64,000 nucleotides of DNA from Mobula hypostoma (GCF_963921235.1 NC_086108.1:22072001-22136000); one strand, 5' to 3'. Shown: positions 15,731-42,448, numbered from the stretch's first letter. The notes: generated by a model not told the origin, from the sequence alone. Translations and numbers: made by a program.

Positions 15731-16062
15731 AAAAAGGGCCACGTTAAATGTTAATGTGGAAATACATTTCTGGCTATTTAAATTTAAATAGTCTTATGGG
15801 TTTCATATAAAACTCTTAACAATTTGAATGTAGGTTTTAAACAAAATATTCTTCTTGGCAGTGACACAAAAGTTCAATTTTTCCACCGTCTCTGCTAGGT
15901 TTGTAGATGAAATATGTGCTTTCTTTTGTTCTTTGAATATATTATGTGTCACCAATCTGAAAACAAAGGAGCTGCCACTTCATCAGATCTGTCTATTTGT
16001 ACAACACAGATAAAAGTTGCTGGTGAACACAGCTGGCCAGGCAGCACCTCTAGTAAGAGGTA

Positions 16063-16100
16063 CAGTCGACGTTTCGGGCCGAGACCCTTCGTCAGGACTA
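16063..16100 (-). ncRNA. Minimal type I hammerhead ribozyme motif in PLE 3' end
   Basis: Reverse complement: tagtc CTGACGA agggtctcggccc GAAAC GTC gactg. Stem I tagtc/gactg, stem II, catalytic core, GUC site. Confidence 0.8.
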
Positions 16101-17637
16101 ACTGAAAGAAGAGCTAGTAAGAGATTTGAAAGTGGGAGGGGGAGGGGGAGATCCGAAATGATAGGAGAAGACAGGAGAGGGAGGGATGGAGCCAAGAGCT
16201 GGACAGTTGATTGGCAAAAGGGATATGAGAGAATCATGGGACAGGAGGCCCAGGGAGAAAGAAAAGGGGGAGGGGGTGAAAAGTCCAGAAGATGGGCAAG
16301 GGGTATAGTGAGAAGGACAGAGGGAGAAAAAGGAGAGAGAAAAAGAATGTGCGTATATAAATAAATAAATAACGGATGGGGTACGAGGGGGTGGGTGGGG
16401 CATTAGCGGAAGTTTGAGAAGTCAGTGTTCATGCCATCAGGTTGGAGGCTACCCAGACGGAATATGTGTTGTTCTTCCAATCTGAGTGTGGCTTCATCTT
16501 TACAGTAGAGGAGGCCGTGGATAGACATATCAGAATGGGAATGGGACGTGGAATTAAAACGTGTGGCCACTGGGAGATCCTGCTTTCTCTGGCGGACAGA
16601 ACGTAGGTGTTCAGCGAAACAATCTCCCAGTCTGCGTTGGGTCTCGCCAGTATATAGAAGGCCGCATCGGGAACCGGATGCAATATATCACCCCAGCCCA
16701 CTCACAGGTGAAGTGTCACCTCACCTGGAAGGACTGTCTGGGGCCCTGAATGGTAGTGAGGGAGGAAGTGTAAGGGCATGTGTAGCACTTGTTCCGCTTC
16801 CAAGGATAAGTGCCAGGAGGGAGATAGGTGGGGAGGGATGGAGGGGACGAATGGACAAGGGAGTCGCGTAGGGAGCAATCCCTGTGGAAAGCAGAGAGGA
16901 GGGGAGGGAAAGATGTGCTTAGTGGTGGGATCCCTTTGGAGGTGGTGGAAGTTACAGAGAATTACATGTTGGACCTGGAGGCTGGTGGTGTGGTAGGTGA
17001 GCACCAGGGGAACCCTATTCCTAGTGGGGCGGCGGGAGGGTGGAGTGAGAGCAGATGTGCGTGAAATGGGGGAGATGCATTTGAGAGCAGAGTTGATGGT
17101 GGAGGAAGGGAAGCCCCTTTCTTTTTGCTTCGCTGAACACCTACGCTCTGTCCGCCAGAGAAAGCAGGATATCCCAGTAGCCACACATTTTAATTCCACG
17201 TCCCATTCCCATTCTGATATGTCTAGCCACGGCCTCCTCTACTGTAAAGATGAAGCTGCACTCAGGTTGGAGGAACAATACTTTATATTCCGTCTGGGTG
17301 GCCTTCAACCTGATGGCATGAACATTGACTTCTCAAACTTCCGCTAATGCCCCACCTCCCCCTCGTACCCTATCTGTTATTTATATACACACATTCTTTT
17401 TCTCTTTCTTCTTTTTCTCCCTCTGTCCCTCTCTCTATACCCCCTGCCCATCCTCTGGGCTTCCCCCCCTCCTTGTCTTTCTTCCTGGGCCTCCTGTCCC
17501 ATGATCCTCTCATATCCCTTTTGCCAATCAACTGTCCAGCTCTTGGCTCCATCCCTCCCCCTACTGTCTTCTCCTATCATTTTGGATCTCCCCCTCCCCC
17601 TCCCACTTTCAAATCTCTTACTAGCTCTTCCTTCAGT

Positions 17638-17675
17638 TAGTCCTGACGAAGGGTCTCGGCCCGAAACGTTGACTG
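17638..17675 (+). ncRNA. Minimal type I hammerhead ribozyme motif (GUU site)
   Basis: tagtc CTGACGA agggtctcggccc GAAAC GTT gactg. Confidence 0.75.
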
Positions 17676-18469
17676 TACCTCTTCCTAGAGATGCTGCCTG
17701 GCCTGCTGCGTTTACCAGCAACTTTTATGTTTGTTGCTTGAAATTCCAGCATCTGCAGATTTCCTGGTGTTTGCGTGTTTGTTTGTACAAGTTGTTTACG
17801 GTCTGACAGAGAATGCCTTAGCTTTCTAATGTCTGCAGAGTATTGCTCTCCCCTTGAGAAATGATGGAATTTCCGATGCAAGAGTACTTTGAATTTATGA
17901 TTAATTAGCATATGCTATATCTTCTTCTGGATCTCCCGGTTTCCATTGAGCTGGTCCTGCAATTTTCTGGAGGAGAAACAGAATTCCTTAACAGCTTATG
18001 GAAGAATTTCAGGGCAATCCAACTACAATGACATTTTTCATCTTCTGTTGTTTAGGAGTCATCAGATGGGTTGTGAGCAATGTACTAGAAACACTTTCTT
18101 TGTGGGAACCTTGAAACCTAAAACATTAATTTTCTGGAAGTATAGTTTCTGTTCCATCATTTTATTTCGGGCGAAGCTGATAGGGATATAGTGCATGAAG
18201 AATGGTTAGTCCAGTAATTAATGATAATTGTCATGATATGGCTATCACCTTCTTCACTGCTGTTTTAGTAGAGTGCCAAGATCGAGGACTTATCACAGAT
18301 AGTGACACAGTTAATGCCCACTTGAACAGCACTTTGAAGAACTTATTGTCCAAGAGTCTATCTTGGTGCAAGTGCCCTTGACCCTTAATCACTGCACATT
18401 TTTCAACACAGTCTAGCTGCCATTCCAGTCAGGCAAGGGGCTGGAAGGTCCATATATCAACTGAGAAAA

Positions 18470-18990
18470 CAAGAAAGCCTCCAAAGCAGGTAGTATCCCA
18501 GCTGAAGTTTTAAAGGTTGATGGAAAAGAACTTCATACATGCATTAATTGACATCTCCTGTACCACTGAAGAGGCATCTCAGCACGGACAAATTGGGCCA
18601 ACAGGCTGTATTACTCCATGACTCAGACATACATTGGGAGACTTCAGAAATGTCGTGACTATCTTCAGAAGGGAAGCAAAACAGTATTTAGCAATTACCA
18701 AGGGATTACTCTTTTGTCTGCCACCAGGAAGTTCATTGCAAGGGTCTTCTCCACTGCTTGCTTCCAGAAACTAAAAAGTTGCTCCCTGAATACAGTGTGG
18801 ATTCCATCCACTGCGAGCACAATCAATGCGATCTTCAACATATGACAACTCCAGGAAAACTGCAAGGAACAATATCAATCAATCTTGATTGGTTCTGATC
18901 ATATTAAGTTTTTGATTCTTTCAATCAAGAGGATTGACAGATAATCCTTTAGTTGCCCTCAGAAACTTGCAGCTTCTGCTTACTACATGA
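18470..18990 (+). mobile_element. Degenerate RTE-like LINE RT fragment
   Basis: NYQGITLLSATRKFIARV in ORF 18618-18845. Confidence 0.6.
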
Positions 18991-19004
18991 TGGCTTCCAA
19001 GCTC

Positions 19005-19770
19005 TGATTCGATTCAAGTCATGTCACGTCACGTCTTATTGTCATTTCAACCAGAACTGCTGGTACAGAACATAGTAAAAATGAGACAACATTTTCCAGG
19101 ACCATGGTGCTACATGAAACAATACAAAAACTACACTGAACTACGTAAGAAAAAACACAAAAACTACAGTAGACTACAGACCTATCCAGGACTGCATAAA
19201 GTGCACAAAACAGTGCAGGCACTACAATAAATAATAAATAAGACAGTAGGCACAGTAGAGGGTATAGTAGGTTGGTGTCAAGCAAGGCTCTGGGTATTGA
19301 GGAGTCTGATGGCGTAGGGGAAGAAACTGTTACATAGTCTGGTCGTGAGAGCCCGAATGCTTTGGTGCCTTTTTCCAGATGGCAGGAGGGAGAAGAGTTT
19401 ATATGAGGGGTGCGTGGGGTCCTTCATAATGTTGTTTGCTTTGCGGATGCAGTGTGTGGTGTAAATGTCTGTGATGGCAGGAAGAGAGACCCCGATGATC
19501 TTCTCAACTGACCTCACTATCCGCTGCAGGGTCTTGCGATCCGAGATGGTACAATTTCCGAACCAGGCCGTGATGCAGCTGCTCAGGATTCTCTCAATAC
19601 AACCTCTGTAGAATGTGGTGAGGATAGGGGGTGGGAGATGGACTTTTCTCAGCCTTTGCAGAAAGTAGAGACGCTGCTGGGAGCTTTGACTTTGCTATGG
19701 AGCTGGTGTTGAGGGACAAGGTGAGATTCTCCGCCAGGTGAACACCAAGAAATTTGGTGCTCTTAATGAT
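19005..19770 (-). mobile_element. Rex1/Babar-like LINE 3' part
   Basis: KFLGVHLAENLT and KDPTHPSYKLFSLLPSGKR...NSFFPYAIRLLN. Confidence 0.8.
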
Positions 19771-20039
19771 CCACTGGTCCACAAGATTCCCAATCCCAGT
19801 GCAGACTCTGGTCAAGTGAGGCAGTGTCATCATTCTAAATCTTATTTATTTCAAGCTTTCTTGATGCAATATTACTCTGATAAACTTGCTGCTGGTGGTG
19901 ATTGGGTCACTGTGAATGTACATACTGATCATCAGTAAGACCACGGCTATTCTTGTATTCCATGTTCACGTTACTCAACTAACATAAAATTCCCTCTATT
20001 TCCTTTGTATCTAAAAATCTACTTCTGACTTGCAGAGAT

Positions 20040-20650
20040 TTCGGAACTGAGTCTCCAATCTTCTTAGGTACACCGTTCCAATGATGTATCATGCTTTTGG
20101 TGAAGAAAATGCTGTTTGTGTGTGTTTCAAACGGCAAGTCACTTATTTTAGTGCAGTGTCCCTTAGTTTCAGATCCCCACTGGAGGGAAGTATCCTTCCT
20201 GTATCCATCATGTCAAGCCCTTAAGAGTTTTGTTTTTGGTATTGTCATTCTTTTAAAGTCTGGAGTATTTACCCCATTTTGCCTGATCTCTCCTCACAGG
20301 ACGCCATCAACCAGCTGATGAAATGTTTGCTGCACTGCCTCTATTGCAGGTGTATCCTTCCTGAGTGATCACATTGTTTCTTGTGCAGTCTCACCAAGCC
20401 CCTTTCAAATTGTCTTCGTACCCACATTATGATACTCTGAGTTTCTATATTTTGTATAAAAATGGATGACCTCACATTTTTCTATATTTAATTTGCTTTG
20501 GCCTCACTCATTTACCTTGTGCACCAATATCTCCTGAGACCTCTCTGCATTCTCTTCACAACACACACAGCTTTATATCGTCACCCCACATCAAATCATT
20601 GATGCAGATTCAGAACAACTGGGATCCAGCATCAACTCTATCAGAGCTCC
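20040..20650 (-). mobile_element. Old CR1 fragment
   Basis: Degenerate similarity to the minus-strand CR1 at 50501-51500 (gtctcaccaagccc, tggatgacctcacattt). Confidence 0.5.
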
Positions 20651-20689
20651 ACAAATCAGTCTCTTGACCCAGCTATTCCCACCTTGAAA

Positions 20690-21965
20690 ATGAGGTTCTG
20701 CAAATGCTGGAAGTCCAAAGAAACACATAACTGAAGGCTGGAGGAACTTGGTAGGTCAGGTAGCAACCATGAAAGTGAATAAACAGTTGATGTTTTGGGC
20801 CGGGACCATTTTTCTGGGATGGAACGGAAGGGGGAGGATGACATAATAAAAAGGTTGGTGGGGGGAAGCAGGATTAGCTAGACTGTGATATGTGAAGTCA
20901 GATGGAGGTGGGAAAGGTAGAGGTTTGAGAGGAAGGAATCTGATAGGAGAGAAGAGTTGATCTATGGAAAAAGGGAAGGAGGAGGAGTACTGGGGGGAGG
21001 TGAGGAGAATAGGTAAGAGGCTAGAGTTGGAGGGGGGGGGGCAAAATTACCAGAAGGAGAAATCGATGTTTATGCCATCAGGTTTAAGGCTACCAAGGCA
21101 GAAAATGAGATATTACTCCTCCACCTGAGAGTGGCCTCATCATGGCAAAAGAAAAGGCCATGGACTGATATGTTGGAACAGGAATGGGGATAGTAGTTAA
21201 GATGGTTAGACATGGGGAAATTCTACTTTTTGTCAATTGCTGGGATATATGCCAGGAGGTACAAATGAACAAGGGAATCACAGAGGGTGCAATCTTTGTG
21301 GAAAGTGGAGGAGTTGGGGGGGCGGTTGTTAAAGAGGAGTTTTGTGATAGGATCCAGTTGAAGATGGTGGAAGCTGCAGAGAATGATGTGTTGGATGCAG
21401 AGGCTGATGGGGTGCTAGATGAGGACAAAAGGCAGTAGGAAGATGGGGTGAGCATGAATGTCCGAGAAATGGAGGAGATGCGGGTGAGGGCAACATCAAT
21501 GATCGAAGAAAGGGGTCTTTGAAGAAGGACAACATCTCTGATGTCTTTGAAAGGAAAGTCTTATCCTGGAAATAGATGTGGCAGAGGTAAAAGAACTGAG
21601 AAAAGGGAATAGCATTTTTACAGGAGACAGGGTGGGAAGAGGTATAATCAAGATAACTGTGGGAAACATTAGGTGTATAAAAGATGTCCAGAAATAGAGG
21701 CAGAGAGATCGAGAAAGGGGAAGAGAGATGTCAGAAATGGACCGAGTGAATTTAAGGGTAAGGTGAAAGTTGAAGGCAAAGTTGATGAAATTTTTGAATT
21801 TAGCATGGGTGCATGAAGCAGCACCAATACAGTAGTCAATATAGCACAGGAAGAGTTAGGTAGCATTACCAAGGAAGGCTTGGAACATGGACTTTTCTAT
21901 GTAGCCAATGAAAAGGCAGGCATAGCTGGGGTCCATTCAGGTGCCTATGGCTACCCCTTGAGTTC
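20690..21965 (-). mobile_element. Degenerate Penelope-like element (RT, endonuclease, 3' end)
   Basis: Collinear with 39100-40700 (atgccatcaggtt..aggctacc, ggcatagctggg...ggctaccc). Decayed hammerhead region ~20783-20820. Confidence 0.8.
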
Positions 21966-24344
21966 CTATGCCTACCTTGTTGTTTGTCTATTAACCAATC
22001 ATCAATCTATGCCAGTACATTACCACAATCCATTGTGCTTTAAGTTTATTTTGTAACTGCACTGTGTAGGAATTTATTATGGGCTATCTGAAAGGCCAAA
22101 TACATGGTATCCACTGGGTTCCTTCTGTCTGTTCTGCTTGCTACAATTACAAAAGCAGGTTTGTCAAACATGATTTCCCTTTCGTAAATCCCTCCTGGCA
22201 CTAACCAGTCTGATTATTATTTTCAAAGTGTCCTTTTACCACCTCCTTAATAATAGATTCTAAAATATTCCCTAATTCTTGCATTGAGTGTATAGGGACC
22301 TGGTCAGTTTGCATGTGGCTACAATATTATCCACAGGTCTTGTCTCCCTACCTATAGAAATGTATACCTGCAGTAGAGGGAGCAAGCAAAGGTTCCCCAG
22401 ATTGATTCATGGAATATACGGTTTGTCATATGAGGATAGGATAAGTGGGCTAGAGGAGTCAGAGGTGATTTCATTGAAATGCACATAGCTCTTCAGGCTG
22501 CAAAAAAAAAGCAGATATATTTACCCTGCTTCACATTGGTGTTCAGAACGCAGAGAGTGCTGACTGTTAAAGTTCATTGCAACTTTTACTCTCATTTTCC
22601 TATATTACACTAATAGTCTTAAGTTCAGAGAGATCAGATTGCATAAAATCTTGAGTGATTTTTAATAAGACATATTATTTAGATTTGACAACTGCTTCAC
22701 TTCAGTTGGAAGAATTTATACTCCTATTACAAGGATGACGTGATTCTTTTATGAGCAAATTAGTTATTTTTGAAACAAGCTTTCTGGTTTTGTGATTAAT
22801 TAGCCTGCCTATATTCAAACAGAATTTTTGGAGCTCTCAGCAGGTATATGTGAACAAACCTGTTTTGCAGTGTATTGGAAAACACCTAAAATTATGCTTC
22901 GAAGATTCCTGTTGATGTTTCTGAGAAAGCCAGTGGCGTTAGGGATAAGGTACTACACTACTGTGTTTCAATTCTGAATTACCATTTTGTTTCTTGCTAT
23001 CATCCATTCCTGCTGGATGAAAGCAGTTGCAGGAGTCTCATATTGTTCTGTAGCTAGCTGTAACTGACATTGGGTTAATAAATCTAATTGGAATTAGAGA
23101 TTGAATGATCTCTAACTCTGGAAGCATTCAGTCTCTCCTGCATGTGATATGCTCAACAGATAAGCAGTTACTGCAAAAGATTGCAGATGGTGGAAATCCA
23201 CAAGAAAATACAGAATACTGGAAACACTTTTCCAGCAGCAGGACAAAAGCTATCGGTGGGCAGACAAACAAGAGTCAACTTTTCAGGCCATGAACTCTCC
23301 ATCAGAACTAAAGAAAGTTTTAAATTGCTTAAGTAGGTGGGCGGTGTAGGGTGTGTGAGATGGTATGGCAGAGGTGAGGGAAAGAACAGAGAGGTGAGAG
23401 ATGGAGAATGAGGTGGTTCAGGTGCTTTGACAGGCCAGGTGTAAGAATGACGTTTCCTTTGGCTGGCCTGATATGAATCAGGTTACAATCTCAAAATAAT
23501 GAATTGACCATTCATGACTGGGAAGAAATTTCCGCATCTGAAGCATGTTAAATTTTTAAAACTCTCAACCCAAGAGGGCTGTGCCACTCAGTACAGAGTC
23601 TCTTCAGGGCAGACGGATGGATAGGATTTTGGGAATGTGGAAAATTGGAGGATATACGATTTATACAACAGAGTGGTGCTGAAATGAAATGTTAACCATG
23701 ATGTCATTGAATGGTGGAACAGGTAGAAGAGGTCAAATGTTGACTCCTGCATCTGTTCCTTATGTTATGTAATAGAAGATGATGATTTGAAGTTAAATTT
23801 AAGATTTGTCTTATTTCTTCAGTTGGTTATACTTTACTGAAGTTCTGTGGGTTCAGAAGTGACTGAGGAGGGTGCCGTGTGCCATAGGAGGGACTAGGAA
23901 GTTTGTGGCAGGATTGGTGGTTGAGCAGTTTGGGAGGTAGTGTGCTGTGTCCCTCATACACTGGGCTGCTGCATGGAATAGTTATTTTGGTGCCATTCTG
24001 AATGGTTACTCTGTATTTTGAGCAGCTATGTGCCATTGATTCTCAGGTGTTGTTGGGGATGTTGCATTTTGAGAACATCCACAAATCCTCTTTTTTTCTG
24101 CCCACTGGTAATCTAACAAGGAGGGTGGATGGTGTTGAAGGTTATGCATACATATGGAAAGAGGGTTGTCAAATAGGCAGGAATCAGGAAATTGGGATAA
24201 GAGAGGTGTCCTTAGGTTCACAACCTGTAACCAGTGGAGCAACGTGTGGATTGATACTGGGAACACAGCTATTTACTATATATATTAGTGACTTGGAAGA
24301 AAGAGGCAAATGTATACTAACTATGTTTGCAGACAGATAAAAAT

Positions 24345-27300
24345 ATATCCTAACCTGGTTGGTCCTTCCAAAGTGCAACACCTCACACTTGTATGCATTG
24401 AATTCCATCTGCCAGTTTTCGGCTCATTTTTCCACCTGGTCCAGATATGCATAGTCTTTGACAGTGTTTTTCGCTGTCTACTACATCTCAGTCTTGGTGC
24501 CATCAGTAAATTTGCTGATCTAGTAAACCACATTATCATTCAGATTGTTGATGTAGACGACAAACAACAGAATCCACAATGATCCCTGCAGCACACCACT
24601 AGTCACAGGCCTCCAGTCAGAGAGACAACCATCTCCTACCACTCTCTAACTTTTCCAGTGAAGCCATTGTCTTATTCAGTTTACTCCATCATCTTTAATG
24701 CCAAACGACTGAACGTCCCATGTGAGGCCTTGTCAAAGGCTGTGCTAAAGACCATGTTAAGAAACATTCACTGCTTTTACCTTCATCCTTTCCTGGTAAC
24801 TTCCTCAAAAAACTCCATGAGGTTGGCTCAAAATGACCCACCATACAAAAGACCATGTTGACTATTGCTAATTAGTTGCTGTGTATCCAAATACTTACAG
24901 CGCGTAAATAAGAGAAAATCTGTAGATGCTGGAAATCCAAGCAATGCACACAAAATGCTGGAGGAACTCAGCAGGCCAGGCAGCATCTATGGAAAAGAGT
25001 ACAGTCGACATTTTGGGCTGAGACCTTTCAGTATATATCTTGTTCCTTAGAATGCCTATCAGTGACTTTCCCACTCCTGATGTCAGGCTCACCGGCCTAT
25101 AATTTCCTGGCTTATTCTTAAAGCCTTTCTTAAACAACAGAACAACATTAGCTGCCTGCCAATCTTCTGGCACCTCACATGTGGCTAAGGACATTTCAAA
25201 TATCTCTGCTGGGGCCCTTGCAGTTTCTGCACAAACCTCACACAGGGTCCAAAGGAACACCTTGTCAGGCCCTGGGGATTTATCCACCCTAGTTTTCCTC
25301 AAGACAGGAAAACACTTCCTCCTCTGTAATCTGTGCAGTCCATGACCTCACTGCTGTTTTGACTCACTTCTATAGACTGTGTCCATCTCCCAAGTAAATA
25401 CAGATGCAAAAAAAAATTCAATTTAAGATCTCCCCCAATTCTTTTTACTCCACTCTTGGTTATCCAGAGGACCAATTTTATCCCTTGCTATCCTTTTACT
25501 CTTAATATATCTCTAGAGCAACTTCATGCCTTTTTCCAGCTCTCCTGATTTACTGTTTAAGTTATCTTGCACTTATATTTCCTTAAATACCTCATTTGTT
25601 CCTTGCTGCCTATACCTGCTATTCACTTCCTCCTTCTTCTTAACCAGGGCCTCAATATCTCTCGAAAACCAAGGTTCCCTAAAAGTGTTATCCATGCCTT
25701 CGACAGGATCATACAAACAGTGTGCTCTCAAACTTTCACTTTTGAATACCTCCCAATTACCAAGCACACCTTTGCCAGAAAACAACTTATCCCAATCCAT
25801 ACTTGCCAGATACTATTGTCTGATACTATTAAAATTGGTCTTTCTGCAGTTCTCCAGAGGACCTGACCTATCTTTCTCCATAATTATCTTGAATTATCCT
25901 GTCTCATTCTCTAATCGGAGATTAGTATTTCACTCTCTCTTGTGGGAACCTCTACATACTGATAAGGAAACTTTCCTGAACACATTTGGTCTATCCCATC
26001 CAGCTGTTACACAGTATGGGAGTCCCAGTCAATAGGTGTAATGCTAAAATCACTTGCTATCACAACCTTGTTTCTTCTAAGCATCTGCAATCTCTCTACG
26101 AATTTGCTCCTCCAAATCCCTTGGACTGTTGTGGACTCTATAACATAATCCCATTAATATGGTCATCCCTTTCTTATTCCTCAATTCCACCCATATGGCC
26201 TCAGTTTACGAGCTTTCAGCCTGTCCCGTCTGAGCACTGCCATGACATTTTCCCTGACTAGTAATGCCACCTCTCCCTCTTTAATCCCTCCCACTTTACT
26301 GCATCTAATGTAATGAATCTCTGGAACCTTGAGCTGCAGTCCTGCCCCTCCTGCAACCAAGTGTCACTAATGGCTACAGTGTCATAATTCCACATGCTGA
26401 TCCATGGCCTAAGCTTATCCGCCTTTCCTACAATGCTTCTTGCATTGAAAGGGATGCAACTCAGAACATCGTTTACACCATGCTTAACCTTTTGATTCCT
26501 GTTTCTGTATGTGGGCTTAACAACATCTTTCTCCACAACAGCTACACTACTGCACTGGCTCACTGGCTCCCATCCCCTTGCAACTCTAGTTTAAACCGCC
26601 ATGCAGCACTAGCAAACCTTCCTGCAAGGATATTCTTCCCCCTCCAGTTCAGATGCAAACCATTCTGCCAGTACAGATCCCACCTATCCTGGAAGAGAGC
26701 CCAATGATCCAAAAATCTGAAGCCCTCTCTCTTCTGCATTATCTCCGTAACCACGTGTTAAACTGTATGATCTTCCTACCTCTGGCCTCACTAGCATGTG
26801 GCATGGTTAGCAATCTTGAGTCACAACCCTGGAGCTTCTGTCCTTTAACTTAGCACCTAAGTCCCTGAAATCACTTTGCAGGACCTTTTCGCCCTTCGTA
26901 CCCATGTCATTAGTCAACGTGTACCACAAACATTGCTGCTCACCCTGACATTAAGAATGCAGTGGGCGCCATCTGAGATGTCCGTGATGCTGACACCCGG
27001 GTGGCAACATATCATCCAGGAATTTCATTCTTGTCCGCAGAACCTCCTTTCTGTGCCCCTCACTTAAGGAATCCCATATCACCAGAGCTCACCTCTTCAA
27101 CCCCCTTCACTTCTGAGCCACAGATCTAGACTCAGTGCCTGAAATCCAACTGCTGTGACTTTACTCTGCTTGGTCATCCTCCCTAACTGTGGCAATCCTC
27201 CTGTTGATGAGGGGAACAGCCCTAGGGGTACTCTGCATTGGCTGTCTATCTCCTTACCCCTCTTGATGATCACCCAGTTACCAGGGTCCTGCACCTTGAG

Positions 27301-27700: not shown

Positions 27701-27799
27701 TAATTATGCACACTCCAATGTCTTCTTGGGAATCATGGCACACAGAATGTATTGATTGTCCCACTTGTTTCTTTTGAAATCTCTGTTACTTTTTAAAAT

Positions 27800-28690
27800 A
27801 GAGTAATTGGTTTATTATTGTCAGGTGTATCGTGATACTGTGAAAAGCTTTCATTTGCATGCCATTGAGACAGATCATTCCATACACATGTCAGGGTAAT
27901 ACGAAAAACTTTTAAAAATGCAAAATATGGTGCTATAGTTACAGAAAATATGCAGGGCAGGTAAACAAGTGCAAGGTCCATGACCAAATAGATTGACAGA
28001 TTAAGGCATTTATATTTAACATAGAAGAAGGCTGTTCAAAAATTTTATAAACAGCAGGATAGAAGCTGAGCAATACACACAAAATGCTGGAGGAACTCAG
28101 CAGGCCAGGCAGCATCTATGGAAGAAAGTACAGTCGGCATTTTGAGCTGAAACCCTTGGCAGCTCTCCCAAAGCAGTGGGAAATGTAGACAGAGTCAATG
28201 AAATTGCTGTTTTGCATGAAGGACCGGGCTTATGTTTACAACTCTCTGCAATTTCTTGTCTTGGGCAAAGTAGTTGCCAAATCAAGTTGAGATAGATCAA
28301 GATGGGTTGCTTTCTGTTGTACATCTGTAAGCATTGGTAAGAATCGTCGATACCATATCGAATTTCCTTAAGTCCATGACTGGCTCTTTTGTTTGACTGA
28401 CATGGGTAGAAAGTTTGTTCTTTTGACACCACATCAGCGGGCTCTCTACCTCCTATCTGTACTCCATCTTGTCGTTGTTTGAGATACAGCTTCCTACAGT
28501 GGTATCTGCAAGCATGTAGATGGAATTAGAGTTGTATTTGGCCACGCAGTTGTGAGTGCATAACAAGTAGAGTAGGGGGCAAAGAATGCTGTCTTGTGGG
28601 GCACTAGGTTGATCGTGTTAAAGTTGTGGTTGTCCGTCCTTACCAACTGTGGTCTATTGGTCAGGAAGTCAAGGATACGTTTGCAGAGGG
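27800..28690 (-). mobile_element. Degenerate Rex1/Babar-like LINE containing a short PLE end at ~28071-28162
   Basis: Similar to the other Rex-like fragments; PLE tail cacacacaaaatgctggaggaactcagc embedded. Confidence 0.55.
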
Positions 28691-29246: not shown

Positions 29247-29277
29247 TGAGAGAGAGAGCGAGAGAGAGCGAGAGAGG
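29247..29277 (+). repeat. (GA)n microsatellite
   Basis: gagagagagagcgagagagagcgagagagg. Confidence 0.8.
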
Positions 29278-29369
29278 ACATGCTTTTAGGTGGAGTGGGA
29301 TTATGTAAAGTCTGGCCTTTCAGTTGAGCAGAAGTCAGAAGCACAGGATAAAAGGAATGGAGACTGTTA

Positions 29370-29892
29370 TGTCAATCCATGGCCTCCTCTACTGTCAAGA
29401 CGAAGCCACACTCAGGCTGGAGGAACAACACCTTATATTTTGTCTGGGTAGCCTCCAACCTGATTGCATGAACATTGATTTCTCTAACTTCCATTAATGC
29501 CCCACCTCCCCTTCTTACCCCATCCCTTATTTTTATTCCCCCCTTTTTTTCTTCTCTCTCTGTCCCTCTCACAATCACTCCTTGCCTGCTCTCCATCTTC
29601 CCCTGGGCTGCCCTCCCCCATTCTTTCTCCCTAGGCCTCCTGTCCCATGATCCTCCCCTTCTCCAATTCTGTATCCCTTTTGCCAATCAACTTTCCAGCT
29701 CTTGGCTCCATCCCTCCCCCTCCTGTCTTCTCCTATCATTTTGGATCTCCCCCTCCCCCTCCCACTTTCAAATCTCTTACTTTCTCTTCTTTTAAGTTTG
29801 TCCTAACAAAGGGTCTCGGCCTGAAACGTCGACTGTACTTCTTCCTGTAGATGCTGCCTGGCCTGCTGCGTTCCACCAGCATTTTGAGTGTG
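29370..29892 (+). mobile_element. PLE 3' fragment with mutated hammerhead core
   Basis: GIY-YIG tail (ctcaggctggaggaacaacacctt...). Hammerhead core reads CTAACAA instead of CTGACGA at ~29803. Confidence 0.85.
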
Positions 29893-31104: not shown

Positions 31105-31400
31105 TGGTAGTGTGGTAGTGCGCAGCTACAGCAACACTATTACAGCTTGGAGAGTTCCAGAGTTTGGAATTCAATTCGGCACCGTCTGTAAGGAGTTTGT
31201 ATATTCTCCTCATGACCATGTGGTTTTCCTCCGTGCGCTCCAATTCCCTCCCACAGCCTGAAGAAGTACTGTTTAGAAGATCATTGTAAAATGTCCAGTG
31301 ATTATGCTACTGTTAAATTGGTGGGTTGCTGAGCTGTGCAGCTTGTTGGACTGGAAGGGCCTGTTCCATGCTGCATCTCTAAATAAAACAAAATAAAAAC
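31105..31400 (+). mobile_element. tRNA-derived SINE
   Basis: Homologous to 15470-15730 (ctgtaaggagtttgta, gaagggcctgttccatgctg, A-rich tail). Confidence 0.65.
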
Positions 31401-31475
31401 CTATTGGTGTAGAACCTAAGGTTTTTGTACCTCCTACCCAATGGAGTAGCAAGAAGAGAGCATGGCCTATTTGAT

Positions 31476-31701
31476 CAACATACATCAAAGTTGCTGGTGA
31501 ACGCAGCAGGCCAGGCAGCATCTATAGGAAGAAGCGCAGTCGACGTTTCAGGCCGAGACCCTTCATCAGGACTGACGAAGGGTCTCGGCCTGAAACGTCG
31601 ACTGCGCTTCTTCCTATAGATGCTGCCTGGCCTGCTGCGTTCACCAGCAACTTTGATGTATGTTGCTTGAATTTCCAGCATCTGCAGAATTCCTGTTGTT
31701 T
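31476..31701. mobile_element. 226-bp fold-back PLE made only of two inverted hammerhead-bearing ends
   Basis: 94-bp arms at 31476-31569 and 31572-31665 with one visible mismatch and a 2-nt loop. Exact 14-bp TSD ATGGCCTATTTGAT at 31462-31475 and 31702-31715. Confidence 0.92.
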
Positions 31702-33469
31702 ATGGCCTATTTGATGATGGATTCTTTTCTCTTGTGTCAGTGCTCATTATAAATGTACTTAGAGTGTTGCCTATGACACACTGGGCTCTCTCTGCCACTT
31801 TCTGTGGCCTTTTCTTTTCCTGAACATTGGTGTTTCCATACCAGGCCATGATGCAGCCAGTTAGGGTACTCTCCATGGTGCATCTATGGAAGTTTGTCAA
31901 AGTTTGTGGTGACATGGTGAAGCAACACAAACTTCTAAGAAAGCAGACGTGCTGTGATGATATTTATGTGCTGGTCTCAAGACAGATCCTCTGATATGTT
32001 ATTGGCAAGGAATTTAAAGCTACTGGCCCTCTCCACCTCTGATCCCCTAGTGGGTACTCACTCTCTCATGGACCTCCAGTTTCTTTCTCCTATAGTCAAT
32101 AATCAGCTCTTTGGTTTTGCTGTTATTGAGTGAGAGGTTGTTGTGGTACCACTCGATCAGATTTTCAAATTTCTTTGTTGATTTGCCACCACCTATGATT
32201 CAGCCAAAAACAGTGGTTCATCAGCAAATTTAAATGCGGCATTGGAGCTGTATTTAGTCGCACAATCATAGGCATGGTGAAAAAATAAGCTCACAGTCTT
32301 GTGGTGCACTTGGTTTGATGGTGATTGTGGAGCAGATGTTGCCAATCTGTACCAACAGGGTCTGCCAGTGGGGCAATCAGGGATCCAAGTGCACAGGTAG
32401 GAACCAAAGCCCAGGTCTTGGAGCTTAATGATGATTTTGAAGGGAATGATAGTGTTGAATGCTGAGTTGCAGTCATCCTGATATATGCATCTTCATTGTC
32501 TAGATGTTCCAGAGCTGAGTGAACAGCGAATGGAATGGCATTTGCTGTTGACCTGTTATGATGGGAAGCAAATTGGAATGAACCCAGTTCGCTCCTCCAG
32601 CAGGAGTTGATATGCTTCATGACCAACCTCTTGAAGCACGTCATCACTGTGGATGCAAGTGCTACTGGATGATAGTCAATGAGGCAGGTTACCACTTTCT
32701 TCTTGGGCAATGATTGAAGCCTGCTTGAAGCAGATGGGTACCTCAGACTGTTGAAGCAAGAGGTTGAAGATGTCTGTAAAAATACTCCAGCTGGTTGATT
32801 AGCACAGGAAAGCCAGATGCTTTCCATGGATTCAATCTCCTGAAGAATGTTCTCATGCCAGCCTCAGAGACTGAACTCACAAGATGGTCAGGAGCTATGG
32901 GGATTCTTAAGAATGCCTCCATGCTCTCTCAGTCAAGTGAGCATAAAAGGTGTTGAGCTCATTTGGGAATGAAACCTTGTTGTCATTTACATATGTTGCT
33001 TGGTTTTGCTTGTAGGAGGTGATGGGTTTCAAACTCTGACACAGTTGTTGGGTTGTTATTCAGTGACAAAAGAGTAGTTGAGAGAAAGGCTTTCCTTCAA
33101 AGTTATGTCAAAATTTGGATGACTGCAATTCACCGACACTGATGGAATTGAACTTTTTTATATTCTTTAAGGAATTAAAGCAGAGTTTTCATTGAAGAGA
33201 AAAACACAGTGATAGTGAGTAAATCTGAGTGAAGCTGATGACAATTCTATAAACCCTTTACAGTTTTCCAATTCTTGAAGTTCAAGCTTTCTGATATCAT
33301 GATTCACCAAAAATTTACATGTTATAAAAAAAACTACTATCAACAATTACATCTTATAAAATAACAGTTGAGAAATATGCAAGTGCACCTTTGATTTCTC
33401 CAGATTGTAGTACAAGATACAGAATTTGATGGAGTTTAGATGAAGTTATCAATAGGCTTCCACAGCAGA

Positions 33470-33970
33470 TAACAGCTGCTGGAGATACTTTTTGATGCAA
33501 CACACAATTTGTTGGAAGAATTTAGTGGGTTGAGCAGCATTTGTGGAAGGAAAGGAACTGATGATGTTCAACTTAAAAAGAAGGCTAATGGTGCGATAAG
33601 AGTCTGAGGTAATTGGTGGACTGGGGTGGGATGAAAGATGATGGGCATGTTGAGCCAGGGAAGGAAAAGGAGGGGAAATGATTTTGGAGGCAATGGCAGA
33701 TGGGGGCCAACAGAGAGAAAAAATGAGAAACCAATGGAGTGAGGTACAGGGAAGGGAAAGTAGAGATTGGAGACAGCTGCTGGAGAGAGATAAGCAAGAA
33801 AATAAGGGGCTACGAATGCTGGAACATGATGAATTAATAAGGTGATAGTGAGAACCATGGGCAGAGAGGTGACTGGTCAATGGGACAGGAACCAGATAGG
33901 GAGAGGTGGAAACCAGTGGTGAACTGTATATGGTGATTGGTTGGGACCAGGAAGGGGACAAAGATGGCAA
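33470..33970 (-). mobile_element. Old PLE-related purine-rich 3' remnant
   Basis: Head gcaacacacaatttgttggaagaatttagtgggttgagcagcat resembles PLE termini, followed by a purine-rich tract. Confidence 0.45.
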
Positions 33971-34279
33971 CGACTCCCATTATGCTCTACTTGAGATTTT
34001 ATGCAACTTTATAATAGCATGTCTAACGCTTTAACCTCGAGAACTTTATTTTTACAGTTCACTACTGTCATTTTAATTACGAGATGGTGAGGAGGCCTCT
34101 TCTCTGAGGCACCAACTGTTATTTGCAGTTTGTGCAGCTTCAACCAAAATAATAAAGAATCCAACGATCTTGACTTTTTTTCACTTTGATTTGTAACCAA
34201 TACAATAAACAAGCTGTCTGTTGCTAGGCACTACTCATTATTTCCTCCAGTATTTGCTAAGTCAACATGGCAAATTATA

Positions 34280-35490
34280 GCAACACACACAAAATGCTGG
34301 AGAAACTCAGCAGGCCAGGCAGCATTAGGAAAAGAGTAAACAGTTGATGTTTTGGGCTGAAACCCTTAATCAGGACTAGAGAAAAAAGAATGAGGTCAGA
34401 GTAAGAAGGTGAGGGAGAGGGGAGGGAGAAACACAAGGTGATAGGTGAAACTAGGAGAGGAGTGACGTGAAGAGCAGGAAGTTGATTGGTGAAAGAGATA
34501 AAGGGCTGGAGAAGGGGGAAATCTGATAGAAGAGGACAGAAGGCCATGGAAGAAAGGGGGAGGAGCACTAGAAGGAGGTGATAAGCAGGTAAGGGGATAA
34601 GATGAGAGGGAGGAATGGGGAATGGTGACAGTTACCAAAAGTTCGTGAAATTGCTGTTTATGCCATGAGGTTGGAGGCAACCCAGACGGAATATAAGCTG
34701 TTGCTCCAACAACCTGACTGTGGCCTCATCGCGGCAGTAGAGGAGGCCATGGACTGGCATATAGGAAAGGGAATGGGAAATAAAATTAAAGTGGGTGGCC
34801 ACCGGGAGATCCCTCTTTTTCTGGCGGACAGGGTGGTGGTCTTCCAATCTATGTCGGAGGCCACACTGGGAGCACTGGATATAGTAGATGACTTCAACAG
34901 ACTCACAGGTGAAGTGTCAGCTCACCTGGAAGGACTGTTTGGAGCCCTGAATGGTAGTGAGAGAGGAGGTGTAGGGGCAGGTGTGGCACTTGTTCCATTT
35001 GCAAGGATAAGTGCCATGAGGGAGATCAGTGGGGAGGAATGAATGGACAAGGGAGTTGTGTAGGGAGCGATCCTTGCGGTAAGTGAGGGAGGGGAGGGAA
35101 AGATGTGCTTGGAGATGGCAGATGCTTGGTGGTGGAATCCCGTTTGAGGTAGCGGAAGTGACGGAGAATTATGTGCTGGACATAGAGGCTGGTGGAGTAG
35201 TAGGTGAGGAGGAGAAAAGGAACCCTATCCCTGATGGGGTGACAGATGGATGGGGTGAGGCAGACATGCGCAAAATGGAAAAATGTGGGTGAGGGCAGCG
35301 CTGATGTTAGAGGGAAGGAAGCCCCTTTCTTTGAAAAAAGAGGGCATCTCCTTAATTCTGGAATAAAAGGCCTTATCATGAGAGCAGATGCAGTGGAGGA
35401 GAAGGAATTGAGTGAAGGGGTGGCATTTTTACAAGTAACAGGGTGGAGAGAGGTGTAGTCCAAGTAGTTGAAGAGTCGGTGGGTTGTAGC
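34280..35490 (-). mobile_element. Penelope-like element, 5'-truncated single arm
   Basis: ORFs 34632-34847 (PVATHFN...LEQQLIFRLGCLQPHGIN) and 35026-35547 (YLDYTSLHP). Decayed hammerhead at 34341-34378. Confidence 0.85.
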
Positions 35491-37077
35491 GTCTCTTTTC
35501 TTTTTGAATGTATAACTCTTTTGTTCTTGATGACAGATCTCCTTCACTTAGAGTCATGATTCATGTTTGGCTAGGTTAGCAAACTCAAAAGTAGGTTATT
35601 ATGGACAACTGGAGCACAAATTAAAAACCAGATTAAAAAAAAGTTTTGGTCTCTTGGTTTAGCAGCTGATCCATCTCATGAAAGAATTGTGGAAAATTTG
35701 TGATTCGACGCAAGAAGACTTTATAGTATAAGATGAGTCTGAATTAGACTGAGCAAGGAGACTGACTTCTTCTGTCAGCATGAAGGAGTTCTAACTATGT
35801 GATCAGTATGTTTTGTTAAACAAATTCTGGTCACATCTTTTACCAGCACTGAATACTTAATATGCAGCCAGTATTGACGAATGCAAGATCATATCAGCTT
35901 TCTTTTTGAGTGATGTTACATTCAAAATAAAAATATTTTCCTTGTTTCTGGAAAGTGTGGTTGTCTGTTTAGTTCATGTCATGATGTGTTTCTGGGTTCT
36001 GGTTGCTCAATTTTTTTGTTGCTATTTTGGGTAATTTTGAATTGAGGCAGGCTGCAGATAACAAACACTGAGCTGAATTGTATATGCCTTGACTCTTTTG
36101 ATTTTGTGTTTTATCTTCTGTGTTTTTCACCTGTTTATCTTTTGTTGGCATTTGGGCGATTTGTGCATACTTTGTGCATGTGGGGAGAGGGTGTTTGATG
36201 TTTTTCTTTGAAACGGTTCCATGGTTTTTCTTTGTTTTGTTGCTGTCTGTGGGGCAGATGAATCTCAGGGTTGTTTACCGCTTACGTACTTTGATAATAA
36301 ATGTACTTTGAATCTTTGAGTCTTTAATAAAAAGGACATTTCATTTATTTTACTTCATTTGACATTGCATCTCCATTTGCATGGAAGACACCCTCAGGAT
36401 TAAAAAAAGTCATGTGGTCAGATGTTGTTTGGTGTTGTTTGATGAAAAAGATAATCTGTATGAGCAGCAGCCATTCAAAGTACACTGCCTTCACTTATCA
36501 TACAGGAACCATAGTGAAGGTATGTTAGCACTGGGGTCTTCCTTTGAACAGTTTTACTCCTGAAGAAAACATTAGCTCCAATGGATGCCTTCATTAAATA
36601 GTCTTATCTATTATAAGCCATCTGCACAAAGCTTCTGGCTTTCTATCTCCAGTGAAGTTGTTTACTTTCATTGAGCTGCAGGCAAGTGACCTATTTCACA
36701 TTTTGTTCTTGATTCTTCCTAAATAAAATATAATTACAGATTGTTTTTGGAACAGCAGAGTATTAGAATGCCTGTTGTCTCATTCTGTGGCATGGTGACA
36801 GGAATGCTAGTATTTGTAATTGTTATTGTAATTGTTATTGAAGGTGCCTTATAATTATGATGTGTGAAATTACAATTAGTCTGGATAAAGTGATTGAGAA
36901 TTACAGTTTCCTATTAGCTTGAGAGATTACTAATGTGGAATTTAAACTTGGTGTGTTGAATGATTATAGTCAAATTTTAAGTAATTTTTTTAATCAGAGC
37001 ATAAGGGGAGTCTGAAATTCAATATTTAAGTGATGTGCAGAAGTTGAAAACTTCATGTTGAAAAAATGCTTCAATTA

Positions 37078-37952
37078 CAGGTTTCCCCCGCCATCCGAAG
37101 GTAGAGCGTTCCTGTGAAACGGTTCGTAAGCCGAGATGTTGTAAAGCAAAGAAGCAATTACCATTTATTTATATGGGAAAATTTTATGGGTGTTCGCAGA
37201 CCCAAAAATTACCTACCAAATAATGCCAAATAACACATAAAACCTAAAATAACAGTAACATATAGTAAAAGCAGGAATAATATTATAAATACACAGCCTA
37301 TATAAAGTAGAAATACTTTTCCACCATCATTGCCGGCACTGTTCACCGAAGTGAAAATCTCACGCAAACGCTCTCGGCAGAAAATCTCACACAAGTGCTG
37401 TTGGCAAAAACACTCTCTCCAGTAACCTTTAAGCTATGAAGCTGCCAAATCATACCAAATAACATGTAAAAATACACAGGCTATATAAAGTAGAAATAAT
37501 GTATGTACAGTGTAATATCACTTACCGGAATTGGTTCAGCGCAGAGCACACTGATGATGGTGTGTTAGACTGAGTCGTCACAGGCTGGGGTGGTGCAGTG
37601 GCCCCCACCCTCCAGGCCACCGACCGATACATTGCCGCGAAGCATGCAGGGGTCCAGCGGTAGCTGGAAGGCACACAGCACATCTTTAAGAAAAAAAGCC
37701 GAAATAAACATGCTAATTAATTAGGTGCCGCCCAGCACATAATTGTCGGCCCAGGTCAGTGCCGATTGCATCCCCTCCGATCTGGGCCGACATTTATTTG
37801 TCGGGTGGCACCTAATTATCGCCTTTTATCGCGTGCTGATTTTTTTCGTAACAGTGAAAACACCTTCTGTTAGCGAAAACAGGGTACTAATGTAGGTCTT
37901 TCATAACAGTGAGGTTTCGTAAAGTGAATGTTTGAAAAGTGGGGGACACCTG
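37078..37952 (-). mobile_element. Tigger/pogo-like element copy 3, internally deleted
   Basis: TA|caggtttcccccgcc ... gggggacacctg|TA. Collinear with 4892-6489, with a deletion at ~37818. Confidence 0.85.
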
Positions 37953-38149
37953 TATACACAACTGCTGAAACCTGCTAAACTTAGAAAGCTTAGTAGAAAT
38001 ACTGATCTGCCCAGATAACTTTTATCTCGGCAAGTGATCACATAGGGCTAAACGATCACATCCGATGTAGTTTTTTAAAAAACTATCATTCCATGCTATT
38101 GACATAAACTACAGAGATAGTTCTCTAGATCAGACTATAGATCATAATT

Positions 38150-38740
38150 GAATTCAGAATAAGATTGAGTTTTATTATTGCTGACATATGTCATGTTATT
38201 TGTTGTTTTGCAGCAGCAGTACATTGCAATACGTTAAAAAGTATTGTAAGTTATGGTAAGAAATATGAAAGATAAGTAGTGCAAAAAGAGAACAAAGTAG
38301 TGAGGTAGTGTTCATGTACTCAAGGACCATTCAAAAATCTGATGGTGGAGGGCAAAAAGCAGTTCCCGAAATGTTGAGTCTTGAAACATGGAATCATAGT
38401 GTTTTTAGGCTCTTGTACCTCCTCCCTCTTGGTAGTAATGAGGAAAGGGCATTTTCTGGGTAGAGAGGGGGCTTAATGATCGATGCTGCCTTTCAGAGGC
38501 ATTACCTTTGAAGAGGTCCTTGATGATGGGTAGGCTAGTATTCATATGGAACTGGCTGAGTTTGCAACCGTCTGCAGCTCCTTTCCAGTCCTTTGCAATG
38601 GTGCCTCTATGATGCAACCAGTCAGAATGCTCTCCAAGTGCATCTGGAGAAGTTTTTCAGAGTTTCCAGAGTTTTTGGTGACATAGCAAATTTCATCAAA
38701 CTTCTAATGAAATATGATTTAACTGCTTCATAATTGCATC
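38150..38740 (-). mobile_element. Rex1/Babar-like LINE 3' fragment
   Basis: Similar to 13300-14010 (aggctcttgtacctcct, gatgcaaccagtcagaatgctctcc). Confidence 0.65.
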
Positions 38741-39159
38741 AATATGTTATAATATATTGCAGTTGATATTATAAAGAAAGTTTGTGATGGCTGTTATTGC
38801 TCCAGTTAGGATTTCACAACAGGAAGTTTTGCAATGGTATAGCAGTACTGATCAGATATTTTGATATATATCAGTAGGCATTATGAATGGAAAGCAATTC
38901 TTTCATTGGTAATCAGAGAACGCAATCAGCATACAGTTAAATGTTTTGTTTAAAGGGGGTAAATTGAAGATAATGCAGTAGATAAGGTATAAACTATGTC
39001 ATTTCAAAGAGCACTTATGATAGGAAATACTTCTATGTGGAAAATAGCTAAAGGGAGTTTCTGCAAGTCATACTTCACTAAAACTATACCAAATAAAGGA
39101 ACACACATCAAAGTTGCTGGTGAGCGCAGCAGGCCAGGCAGCATCTCTAGGAAGAGGTA

Positions 39160-39197
39160 CAGTCGATGTTTCAGGCCGAGACCCTTCGTCAGGACTA
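39160..39197 (-). ncRNA. Minimal hammerhead ribozyme motif (AUC site variant)
   Basis: Reverse complement: tagtc CTGACGA agggtctcggcct GAAAC ATC gactg. Confidence 0.7.
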
Positions 39198-42100
39198 ACT
39201 GAAGGAAGAGCTAGTAAGAGATTTGAAAGTGGGAGGGGGAGATCCAAAATGATAGGAGAAGACAGGAGGGGGAGGGATGGAGCCAAGAGCTGGACAGGTG
39301 ATAGGCAAAAGGGATATGAGAGGATCATGGGACAGGAGGCCCAGGGAGAAGGAAAAGGGGGAGGGGGGGATTAAACGCAGAGGATGGGCAAGGGGTATAG
39401 TCAGAGGGACAGAGGGAGAAAAAGGAGAGAGAGAGAGAAAGAATGTGTGTGTATAAATAAATAACGGATGGGGTACGAGGGGGAGGTGGGGCATTAGCGG
39501 AAGTTTGAGAAGTCAATGTTCATGCCATCAGGTTGGAGGCTACCCAGACGGAATATAAGGTGTTGCTCCTCCAACCTGAGTGTGGCTTCATCTTTACAGT
39601 AGAGGAGGCCGTGGATAGACATGTCAGAATGGGAATGGGATGTGGAATTATAATGTGAGGCCACTGGGAGATCCTGCTTTCTCTGGCGGACAGAGCATAG
39701 GTGTTCAGCAAAACGATCTCCAAGTCTGCGTCGGCTCTAGCCAATATATAGAAGGCCACATCAGGAGCACCGGACGCAGTATATCACCCCAGCTGACTCA
39801 CAGGTGAAGTGTCGCCTCACCTGGTAGGACTGTCTGGGGCCCTGAATGGTGATAAGGGAGGAAGTGTAAGGGCATGTGTAGCACATGTTCCGCTTACAAG
39901 GATAAGTGCCAGGAGGGAGATCAGTGGGGAGGGATGGGGGGTGGAATGAATGGACAAGGGAGTCACGTAAGGAGCAATCCCTGTGGAAAGCAGAGAGAGA
40001 GGGGAGAGGGAAAGATGTGCTTAGTGGTGGGATCCCGTTGGAGGTGGCGGAAGTTACGGAGAATAATATGTTGGACCCGGAGGCTGGTGGGGTGGTAGGT
40101 GAGGACCAGGGGAACCCTATACCTAGTGGGGTGGCGGGAGGATGGAGTGAGAGCAGATGTGCGTGAAATGGGGGAGATGTGTTTGAGAACAGAGTTGATG
40201 GTGGAGGAAGGGAAGCCCGTTTCTTTAAGAAAGGAGGACATCTCCCTCGTCCTGGAATGAAAAGCCTCATCCTGAGAGCAGATGCGGCGGAGACGGAGGA
40301 ATTGCGAGAAGAGGATGGCATTTTTGCAAGAGACAAGGTGCGAAGAGGAATAGTCAGATAGCTGTGAGAGTCAGTAGGCTTATAGTAGACATCAGTGGAT
40401 AAGCTGTCTCCAGAGATAGAGACAGAAAGATCTAGAAAGGGGACAGAGGTGTCGGAAATGGACCAGATAAACTTGAGGGCAGGGTGAAAGTTGGAGGCAA
40501 AGTTAATGAAGTCAACGAGCTCAGCATGCGTGCAGGAAGCAGCGTCAATACAGTTGTCGATGTAGCGAAGGAAAAGTGGTGGACAGATACCAGAATAGGT
40601 TTGTAACATAGATTTTTCCACAAAGCCAACAAAAAGGCAGGCATAGCTAGGACCCATACGGGTGCCCATGGCTACACCTTTAGTTTGGAGGAAGTGGAAG
40701 GAGCCAAAGGAGAAATCATTAAGAGTAAGGACTAATTCCGCTAGACGGATCAGAGTGGTGGTAGAGGGGAACTGATTAGGTCTGGAATCCAAAAAGAAGC
40801 CGAGAGCTTTGAGACCTTCCTGATGGGGGATGGAAGTATATCGGGACTGAACATCCATGGTGAAAATAAAGCGGTGGGGGCCAGGGAACTTAAAATCATC
40901 GAAAAGTTTAAGAGCGTGAGAAGTGTCACGAACATAGGTAGGAAGGGATTGAACAAGGGGGGATAAAACCGTGTCGAGGTATGCAGAAACGAGTTCAGTG
41001 GGGACCTCCCTCCCTCCCCTTTCTAGATCTTTCTGTTTCTATCTCTGGAGGCAGCTTATCTACTGATGTCTACTATAAGCCTACTGACTCCCACAGCTAT
41101 CTGGACTATTCGCCTTCTCACCCTGTCTCTTCCAAAAATGCCATCCCCTTCTCACAATTCCTCCGTCTCTGCCGCATCTGCTCTCAGGATGAGGCTTTTC
41201 ATTCCAGGACGAGGGAGATGTCCTCCTTTTCTAAAGAAAGAGGCTTCCCTTCCTCCACCATCAACTCTGCTCTCAAACACATCCCCCCCATTTCACGCAC
41301 ATCTGCTCTCACTCCATCCTCCCGCCATCCCACTAGGAATAGGGTTCCCTTGGTCCTCACCTACCACCCCACCAGCCTCCGGATCCAACATATTATTCTC
41401 CGTAACTTCTGCCACCTCCAACGGGATCCCACCACTAAGCACATCTTTCCCTCCCCCCCCCCGCTTTCCGCAGGGATCGCTCCCTACGCGACTCCCTTGT
41501 CCATTCGTCCCCCCCATCCCTCCCCACTGATCTCCCTCCTGGCACTTATCCTTGTAAGCGGAACAAGTGCTACATATGCCCTTACACTTCCTCTCTTATC
41601 ACCATTCAGGGCCCCAGACAGTCCTTCCAGGTGAGGCGACACTTCACCTGTGAGTCAGCTGGGGTGATATACTGCGTCCGGTGCTCCTGATGTGGCCTTC
41701 TATATATTTGCTAGACCCGACGCAGACTGGGAGATCGTTTTGCTGAACACCTATGCTCTGTCCGCCAGAGAAAGCAGGATCTCCCAGTGGCCACATATTT
41801 TAATTCCACGTCCCATTCTGATATGTCTATCCACGGCCTCCTCTACTGTAAAGATGAAGCCACACTCAGGTTGGAGGAGCAACATCTTATATTCCGTCTG
41901 GGTAGCCTCCAAACTGATGGCATGAACATTGACTTCTCTAACTTCCGCTAATGCCCCACCTCCCCCTCGTACCCCATCCGTTATTTATTTATATACACAC
42001 ATTCTTTCTCTCTCTCTCTCCTTTTTCTCCCTCTGTCCCTCTGACTATACCCCTTGCCCATCCTCTGGGTTTAATCTCCCCTCCCCCTTTTCCTTCACCC

Positions 42101-42246
42101 TGGGCCTCCTGTCCCATGATCCTCTCATATCCCTTTTGCCAATCACCTGTCCAGCTCTTGGCTCCATCCCTCCCCCTCCTGTCTTCTCCTATCATTTTGG
42201 ATCTCCCCCTCCCACTTTCAAATCTCTTACTAGCTCTTCCTTCAGT

Positions 42247-42284
42247 TAGTCCTGACGAAGGGTCTCGGCCTGAAACGTCGACTG
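42247..42284 (+). ncRNA. Minimal type I hammerhead ribozyme motif, intact, sense to the host pre-mRNA
   Basis: tagtc CTGACGA agggtctcggcct GAAAC GTC gactg. Confidence 0.8.
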
Positions 42285-42448
42285 TACCTCTTCCTAAAGA
42301 TGCTGCCTGGCCTGCTGCATTCACCAGCTACTTTGATGTGTGTTGCTTGAATTTCCAGCATCTGCAGAATTCCTCGTGTTTGCCAAAATAACGGAACATT
42401 TGCTCTTGTATTATAAATCTGAAATGTGGTTAAAGCTATAGTATTGAC

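Follow-up and report, generated by a model that had tools for sequence, protein, structure and literature searches.

How a retroelement comes to lie twice, head to head, within a single target site is the question raised by a 64,000-nucleotide stretch of the genome of Mobula hypostoma (GCF_963921235.1 NC_086108.1:22072001-22136000; hereafter the window, with positions counted from its first letter). The window holds three two-armed insertions, I1, I2 and I3, all of them dead, 5'-truncated Penelope-like copies.

Architecture of the insertions

All three insertions read target site duplication (TSD), antisense arm without a tail, sense arm with a tail, TSD, which is the order given in a preliminary description whose coordinates proved good to one base. 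I1 is enclosed by TSD copies at 15990-16004 (+) and 17776-17790 (+), which match at 13 of 15 positions, the last 3 nt of the left copy belonging also to the inner end of the element; its tail-less arm (16002-17124, -; 1123 nt) meets the tail-bearing arm (17125-17775, +; 651 nt, of which 17737-17775 form a 39-nt tail) at a blunt central junction. The TSD copies of I2 (31462-31475 and 31702-31715, both +) are identical at 14/14 positions and have zero overlap with the element; the 5' end of the tail-less arm (31476-31573, -; 98 nt) coincides with the first base of hammerhead helix I, while the tail-bearing arm (31572-31701, +; 130 nt, with a 36-nt tail at 31666-31701, +) begins at the CUGACGA core, so that the two overlap by 2 nt at the junction. 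The left TSD of I3 (39089-39103, +), whose last 4 nt are likewise part of the inner end of the element, matches the right one (42384-42398, +) at 13/15 positions, and its tail-less arm (39100-41003, -; 1904 nt) and tail-bearing arm (41004-42383, +; 1380 nt, with a 39-nt tail at 42345-42383) meet with no clear junction microhomology.

The TSD lengths of 14-15 bp claimed earlier are correct, and only one of the three pairs is perfect. The best ungapped score was reached by 0 of ~3000 random flank pairs for each insertion, and the gapped score by 3, 1 and 2 of ~5000 pairs for I1, I2 and I3, respectively. As had been proposed, the left arms stop at nearly the same internal point, namely at 42345, 42345 and 42344 in the numbering of the I3 right arm, and the last 39, 36 and 39 nt of the element (previously put at about 35-40 nt) are found on the sense arm only. 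An overlap between the TSD and the antisense arm had been reported for two cases, as acaa and aca; two cases were indeed found, their actual sequences being CAA (3 nt, I1) and AACA (4 nt, I3), with none in I2.

The 3' end of the element points outward at both flanks of every insertion. The central junction lies at a different position each time, with microhomology of 0, 2 and 0 nt (I1, I2, I3), and since the arms overlap in sequence while the junction differs, the insertions did not inherit their inversion from a shared donor. Around a centre of 2 nt, I2 forms a near-perfect palindrome; the junctions of I1 and I3 are not palindromic. The tail-less arm extends further 5' than its partner in 3/3 insertions, by 510, 4 and about 560 nt (the last being 1904 minus 1340 aligned nt), for which the chance p is 0.125 (n=3); a tail on exactly one arm in 3/3 likewise has a probability of at most 0.125 under free choice, so chance is possible.

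At each of the six nick sites suggested by the TSD ends, the next three bases are G or T, then any base, then T (GTT, GAT, GAT, GCT, TTT and TAT), a possible endonuclease preference noted post hoc in a small sample.

This form is not new: the architecture and both start sites were already published, and I1-I3 add a further example to an insertion type in the literature. The typical unit in the text of Arkhipova 2013 (PMC3846280) has a TSD with an inverted pLTR next to it, one inverted pLTR optionally carrying a tail of 31 bp, and the account in Craig 2021 (PMC8557442) generalises the inverted, 5'-truncated copy with a 30-40 bp one-sided tail. As described in these texts, Pen2a_Av of Adineta vaga (PMC3846280) and the unit of Craig 2021 (PMC8557442) share with the present insertions the head-to-head inverted, 5'-truncated copy, the 30-40 bp tail often at one end, the TSD around the whole and palindromic junctions. 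The TSDs of I1-I3 measure 14-15 bp, as against the 8-10 bp given for the rotifer Pen2a_Av (PMC3846280), and, unlike the canonical EN+ PLE unit depicted in both accounts (PMC3846280, PMC8557442), I1-I3 are without a complete ORF or a direct pLTR pair. Which arm bears the tail is not stated in the text of PMC3846280 or PMC8557442, figures aside.

Other structures occur in the same window. At 7921-10657, an apparent 827-nt fold-back of a CR1-type LINE resolves into one continuous antisense copy (7921-8764 and 10393-10660) split by a sense copy (8765-10392), the pair being enclosed in a single terminal repeat of a DNA-transposon-like element (6490-6637 inverted relative to 7838-7913 and 10653-10723). 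A young CR1-type LINE with long open frames of 356 and 420 aa, about 93-97% alike to these copies, is located at 51252-53565 (-). The large degenerate inverted-repeat structure at 3213-6491, which contains nested hairpins at 4016-4295 and 5452-5705, resembles nested Tigger/pogo-type DNA transposons.

Identity of the element and its hammerhead motif

The element of I1-I3 is placed by its sequence among the Penelope-like retroelements (PLEs) and, judged by its linker motif, appears to be of the Neptune/Nematis type, both clades taken together. The tail-less arm of I3 (41002-39515, -) encodes a broken reverse transcriptase (RT), a thumb, a CX4CxxC linker and a remnant of GIY-YIG type. Its RT gave a weak RVT_1 match (E 0.0055), below the cut-off, and 299 homologues at E<=1e-10, the best being a Mobula protein at 90%; over ~510 aligned positions, the protein of this arm is 43% identical to the intact RT+GIY-YIG proteins P0050 and P0036, the first of which carries Pfam GIY-YIG (E 1.9e-06). 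A C-terminal GIY-YIG endonuclease feature in the I3 left arm (VIYCVRCS*CGLLYIG ... EHL ... HYN) aligns to the C-terminus of P0036. Upstream of the GIY-YIG core, the linker reads CKRNMCYTC and CKRNKCYIC in the I3 arms, and a CX2-5CxxC linker is described in PMC8557442 as a mark of the Neptune or Nematis clades. Like EN+ Penelope-like elements, this family combines a PLE-related RT, a C-terminal GIY-YIG with a CCHH motif and a hammerhead motif in the terminal repeat, and its insertions show in 3/3 cases the inverted 5'-truncated copy, the one-sided tail of 30-40 bp and the TSD. All copies of the coding region in the window are interrupted by stops, and a full-length copy was not found within it; public contigs contain go-back joints to 42247-42248, which would be consistent with partial tandems (direct pseudo-LTR).

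A predicted minimal hammerhead motif, consisting of helix I, CUGACGA, helix II and GAAAC-GUC, occupies 42247-42284 (+), and further cores are located at 17643-17667 (+), 31572-31596 (+), 16071-16095 (-), 31545-31569 (-) and 39168-39192 (-), the core being present in 6/6 arms of I1-I3. Helices I and II can be drawn at -7.2 kcal/mol, which is not the minimum-energy fold, and Rfam at its gathering threshold returned 0 matches to the motif. As in the PLE minimal hammerheads described in the text of Cervera and De la Pena 2014 (PMC4209133), a helix III loop is absent, helix I is short and an unpaired base stands 5' of stem II; the predicted helix II has 4 bp here, as compared with 7-8 bp in Schistosoma, for which the same text reports hammerhead pairs on opposite strands, 100-700 bp apart. 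Pattern scans of metagenome and viral contigs for the hammerhead core found nothing, and the RT query in metagenome contigs yielded 237 pattern matches, 0 of them confirmed.

The 5' ends of short copies (31572-31573, 25029 and 28157) cluster within ~10 nt where the hammerhead has its 5' edge, and look as if the cDNA had run off an RNA start at this motif.

Start sites and source alleles

The raw-read runs X21 and X22 gave 0 aligned reads, so the public sequence evidence consists of assembled contigs, and their depth measures abundance poorly. Loose contig ends pile up at 42381-42383 in two runs (426 and 530; 321 and 430 records), in agreement with the tail ends of I1-I3 (equivalents of 42384, 42381 and 42383). 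The inner site does not occur among the 12 loose-end rows listed (of 1609); a single contig piece among those listed stops there, at 42346. Another pile, at 42248 (643 and 478 records), coincides with the I2 pivot but is confounded as a truncation hotspot, and was not counted as one because the divergence of older subfamilies sets in immediately upstream of it. An opposite-strand joint from the inner site to the tail end (42348/42381), carried by 5 contigs of one run and 2 of another, looks like a tail-less end joined directly to a tail end with no target DNA between them, as in tandem fold-back units or self-targeting.

Five solo copies in the window can be scored. Three end at the inner site (42342-42347), namely a short copy at 28069-28157 (-; 42347 equivalent), a copy at 29364-29892 (+; 42342 equivalent) and an older one at 34279-35470 (-; 42347, with a weak extension to 42357); two keep the tail, these being a short copy of an older subfamily at 24899-25029 (-), which ends at the tail end, and an old copy at 20672-21964 (-). 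Significant TSDs were found for none of the five: the copies at 24899-25029 and 28069-28157 yielded no TSD, and a possible 9-bp TSD of 29364-29892 was equalled by 129 of 2000 random pairs. Copies at 33490 (ambiguous end), 15-836 (3' end off the window) and 55894 (short match) were left out of the count. Since 3/5 solo copies end at the inner site, it is a general start point and not a product of inversion.

These start sites can be compared with those of the lizard protein PAc (Poseidon, Anolis carolinensis), which, according to the text of Frangieh 2024 (PMC11167929), cuts and extends both strands in vitro, starts reverse transcription at two RNA sites bounding the tail without target homology, and is predicted to be a dimer. 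The element described here resembles PAc in the two start sites bounding the tail and in the hammerhead upstream of them, but PAc starts in an AC-rich stem-loop, whereas the inner site here is UG-rich on the sense strand, and PAc belongs to the Poseidon clade rather than to the Neptune/Nematis type (PMC11167929). All three right arms show a stem-loop that surrounds the inner site, but it was not above shuffles (z -0.78 to 0.22 for the three end fragments). Microhomology as the rule by which the inner site is selected, as claimed earlier, is not supported, because I2 has 0 nt of overlap, solo copies end there (3/5) and PAc needs no homology. Overlaps of at least 3 nt occur at 4% of random targets, and their presence in 2/3 insertions gives a p of about 0.005 (post hoc); short pairing may thus tune the start, but is not required.

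Within an insertion, the arms are identical at 561/609 (92.1%), 93/94 (98.9%) and 1281/1340 (95.6%) positions in I1, I2 and I3, respectively, and identity between insertions is 86-92%. The expectation that arms are more alike than unrelated copies is borne out by the informative 2:2 columns, which pair arms by insertion in 14/14 cases, but not by the overall identity of I1, whose arms are no closer to each other than to those of I3 (91.5-91.7%). Public assembled contigs were aligned to 41750-42450, with 40 of 179 difference rows listed. Among these rows, 5/14 informative sites are common alleles, at 23-66% by depth in run X1; the remaining 9/14 are outside the aligned stretch or not among the rows listed. 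Both variants previously described as private to an insertion are present in its arms, but cacctg/caactg is a common allele in the public runs; the ccccct copy-number variant is not among the rows listed from public contigs. Contrary to what had been argued, shared variants do not prove one template: the 5 of 14 informative sites that are listed are common family alleles, which point to one source lineage but imply no single RNA molecule, and a pair of RNAs drawn from that lineage would suit them just as well.

The 5/5 listed rare alleles of the I3 right arm are absent from the I3 left arm, and together with the paired lineage alleles this means that the arms of each insertion come from one source lineage and have decayed separately since. 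Arm differences that match other copies (13/48 in I1; 8 non-CpG of 59 in I3) are almost all C/T, and two of the non-CpG differences of I3, at 41939 and 42068, are transversions. The family is very abundant, with about 200,000 contigs aligned per public run.

Formation of the inverted pairs

Priming from both target strands, followed by head-to-head joining, probably explains I1-I3 better than any other pathway considered. The preliminary description had proposed the same two-strand priming at the tail end and an inner site, with joining, and in these respects remains the best reading once its microhomology rule is removed. The endonuclease of the element would nick both target strands 14-15 bases apart; both free ends would then prime reverse transcription, which would begin at the tail end of the RNA for one of them and at the inner site, 36-39 nt upstream, for the other; finally, a head-to-head and mostly blunt joint would connect the two incomplete cDNAs, followed by fill-in synthesis. 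The TSDs, arm geometry, one-sided tail, lineage alleles and junction sequences are directly visible in the insertions: the 3' ends point outward on either side, which is what priming from each of the target strands demands, and one TSD encloses both arms in 3/3. By analogy with PAc in vitro, the element would cut and extend both strands from two start sites with no need of homology; that both primings belong to one event, and that the products are joined, we infer. Against this stand the number of insertions, only three, the one-sided tail that chance could produce in 3/3, the lack of the inner site among the 12 listed loose-end rows, the preference for antisense self-priming in Arkhipova 2013, the clade of PAc (Poseidon), which is another than that of this element, and the report in the text of Frangieh 2024 (PMC11167929) that PAc shows no start-site difference between strands. 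Inverted insertions and the joining step are not discussed in the main text of that paper (PMC11167929), and nothing further on mechanism was found in the text of a bioRxiv retrozyme paper (10.64898/2026.07.22.740005) or of PMC8969392.

A single RNA as template for both cDNAs is about as likely as two RNAs of one source. We tentatively put forward, as a possibility well short of probable, that an RT dimer copies one RNA twice, a leader starting from the inner site and a follower from the tail end. The follower could not overtake the leader on one RNA, so the tail-less arm would be the longer and the tail one-sided; if true, this would explain why one arm bears the tail and why that arm is never further 5', the tail length (36-39 nt) would equal the spacing of the two active sites, and a shared barrier would yield near-perfect palindromes like I2. 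The I3 transversions at 41939 and 42068 match alleles in other copies, which argues mildly against one RNA copied twice. This reading was not found stated in the texts consulted, figures aside.

Among the rival explanations, an unlikely one is that the 3' end of a single-strand cDNA folds back and copies itself, a short second priming adding the tail. It predicts that one arm is always a 5' subset of the other, which is true in 3/3, and accounts for the shared alleles as well as for the near-perfect palindrome of I2 with its 2-nt centre; however, junction microhomology is 0, 2 and 0 nt, the loops would measure ~500 nt in I1 and I3 but 2 nt in I2, and the longer arm is tail-less, so a second priming is needed for the tail anyway. 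Still more doubtful is the formation of a head-to-head palindrome before integration, through self-priming on an antisense template, which is the model favoured in the text of Arkhipova et al. 2013 (PMC3846280). That text reads palindromic junctions in this way, and I2 has one; moreover, the opposite-strand joint 42249/42337 is seen repeatedly, in 4 contigs of one run and 2 of another. Yet the junctions of I1 and I3 are non-palindromic, all three differ, the one-sided tail is left without a reason, and PAc, as reported in PMC11167929, uses a sense template for insertion in vitro. An origin in two independent insertions, adjacent or one within the other, with later gene conversion is very improbable: the abundance of the family (about 200,000 contigs per run), the CR1-type pair at 7921-10657, which mimics a fold-back by nesting, and I1 arms just 92% alike speak for it, but a single TSD surrounds both arms in 3/3, and the 5/5 listed I3 right-arm rare alleles absent from the left arm give no sign of conversion.

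A product of L1-type twin priming was rejected, since 609, 94 and 1340 aligned nt are common to both arms and poly(A) is absent. According to the text of Meyer et al. 2010 (PMC2837659), twin priming of L1 produces an inversion accompanied by an internal deletion, while dual priming, which involves two RNAs, has been proposed. The pathway preferred here would share with L1 twin or dual priming the use of both target strands as primers and the inverted pieces within one TSD; it differs from twin priming as there described (PMC2837659), with its internal deletion and poly(A), in the duplicated 3' sequence, the absence of poly(A) and the two fixed starts.

By themselves, the three copies contribute little more than a clean vertebrate example of this insertion type; a small addition is that the tail-less arm reaches further 5' in 3/3, which fits one RNA copied twice (n=3). 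The formation of inverted ends in PLEs is called unresolved in the text of Craig 2021 (PMC8557442), and the abundant family of Mobula hypostoma gives thousands of natural products in which the longer arm, the tail-bearing arm and the allele differences can be counted.
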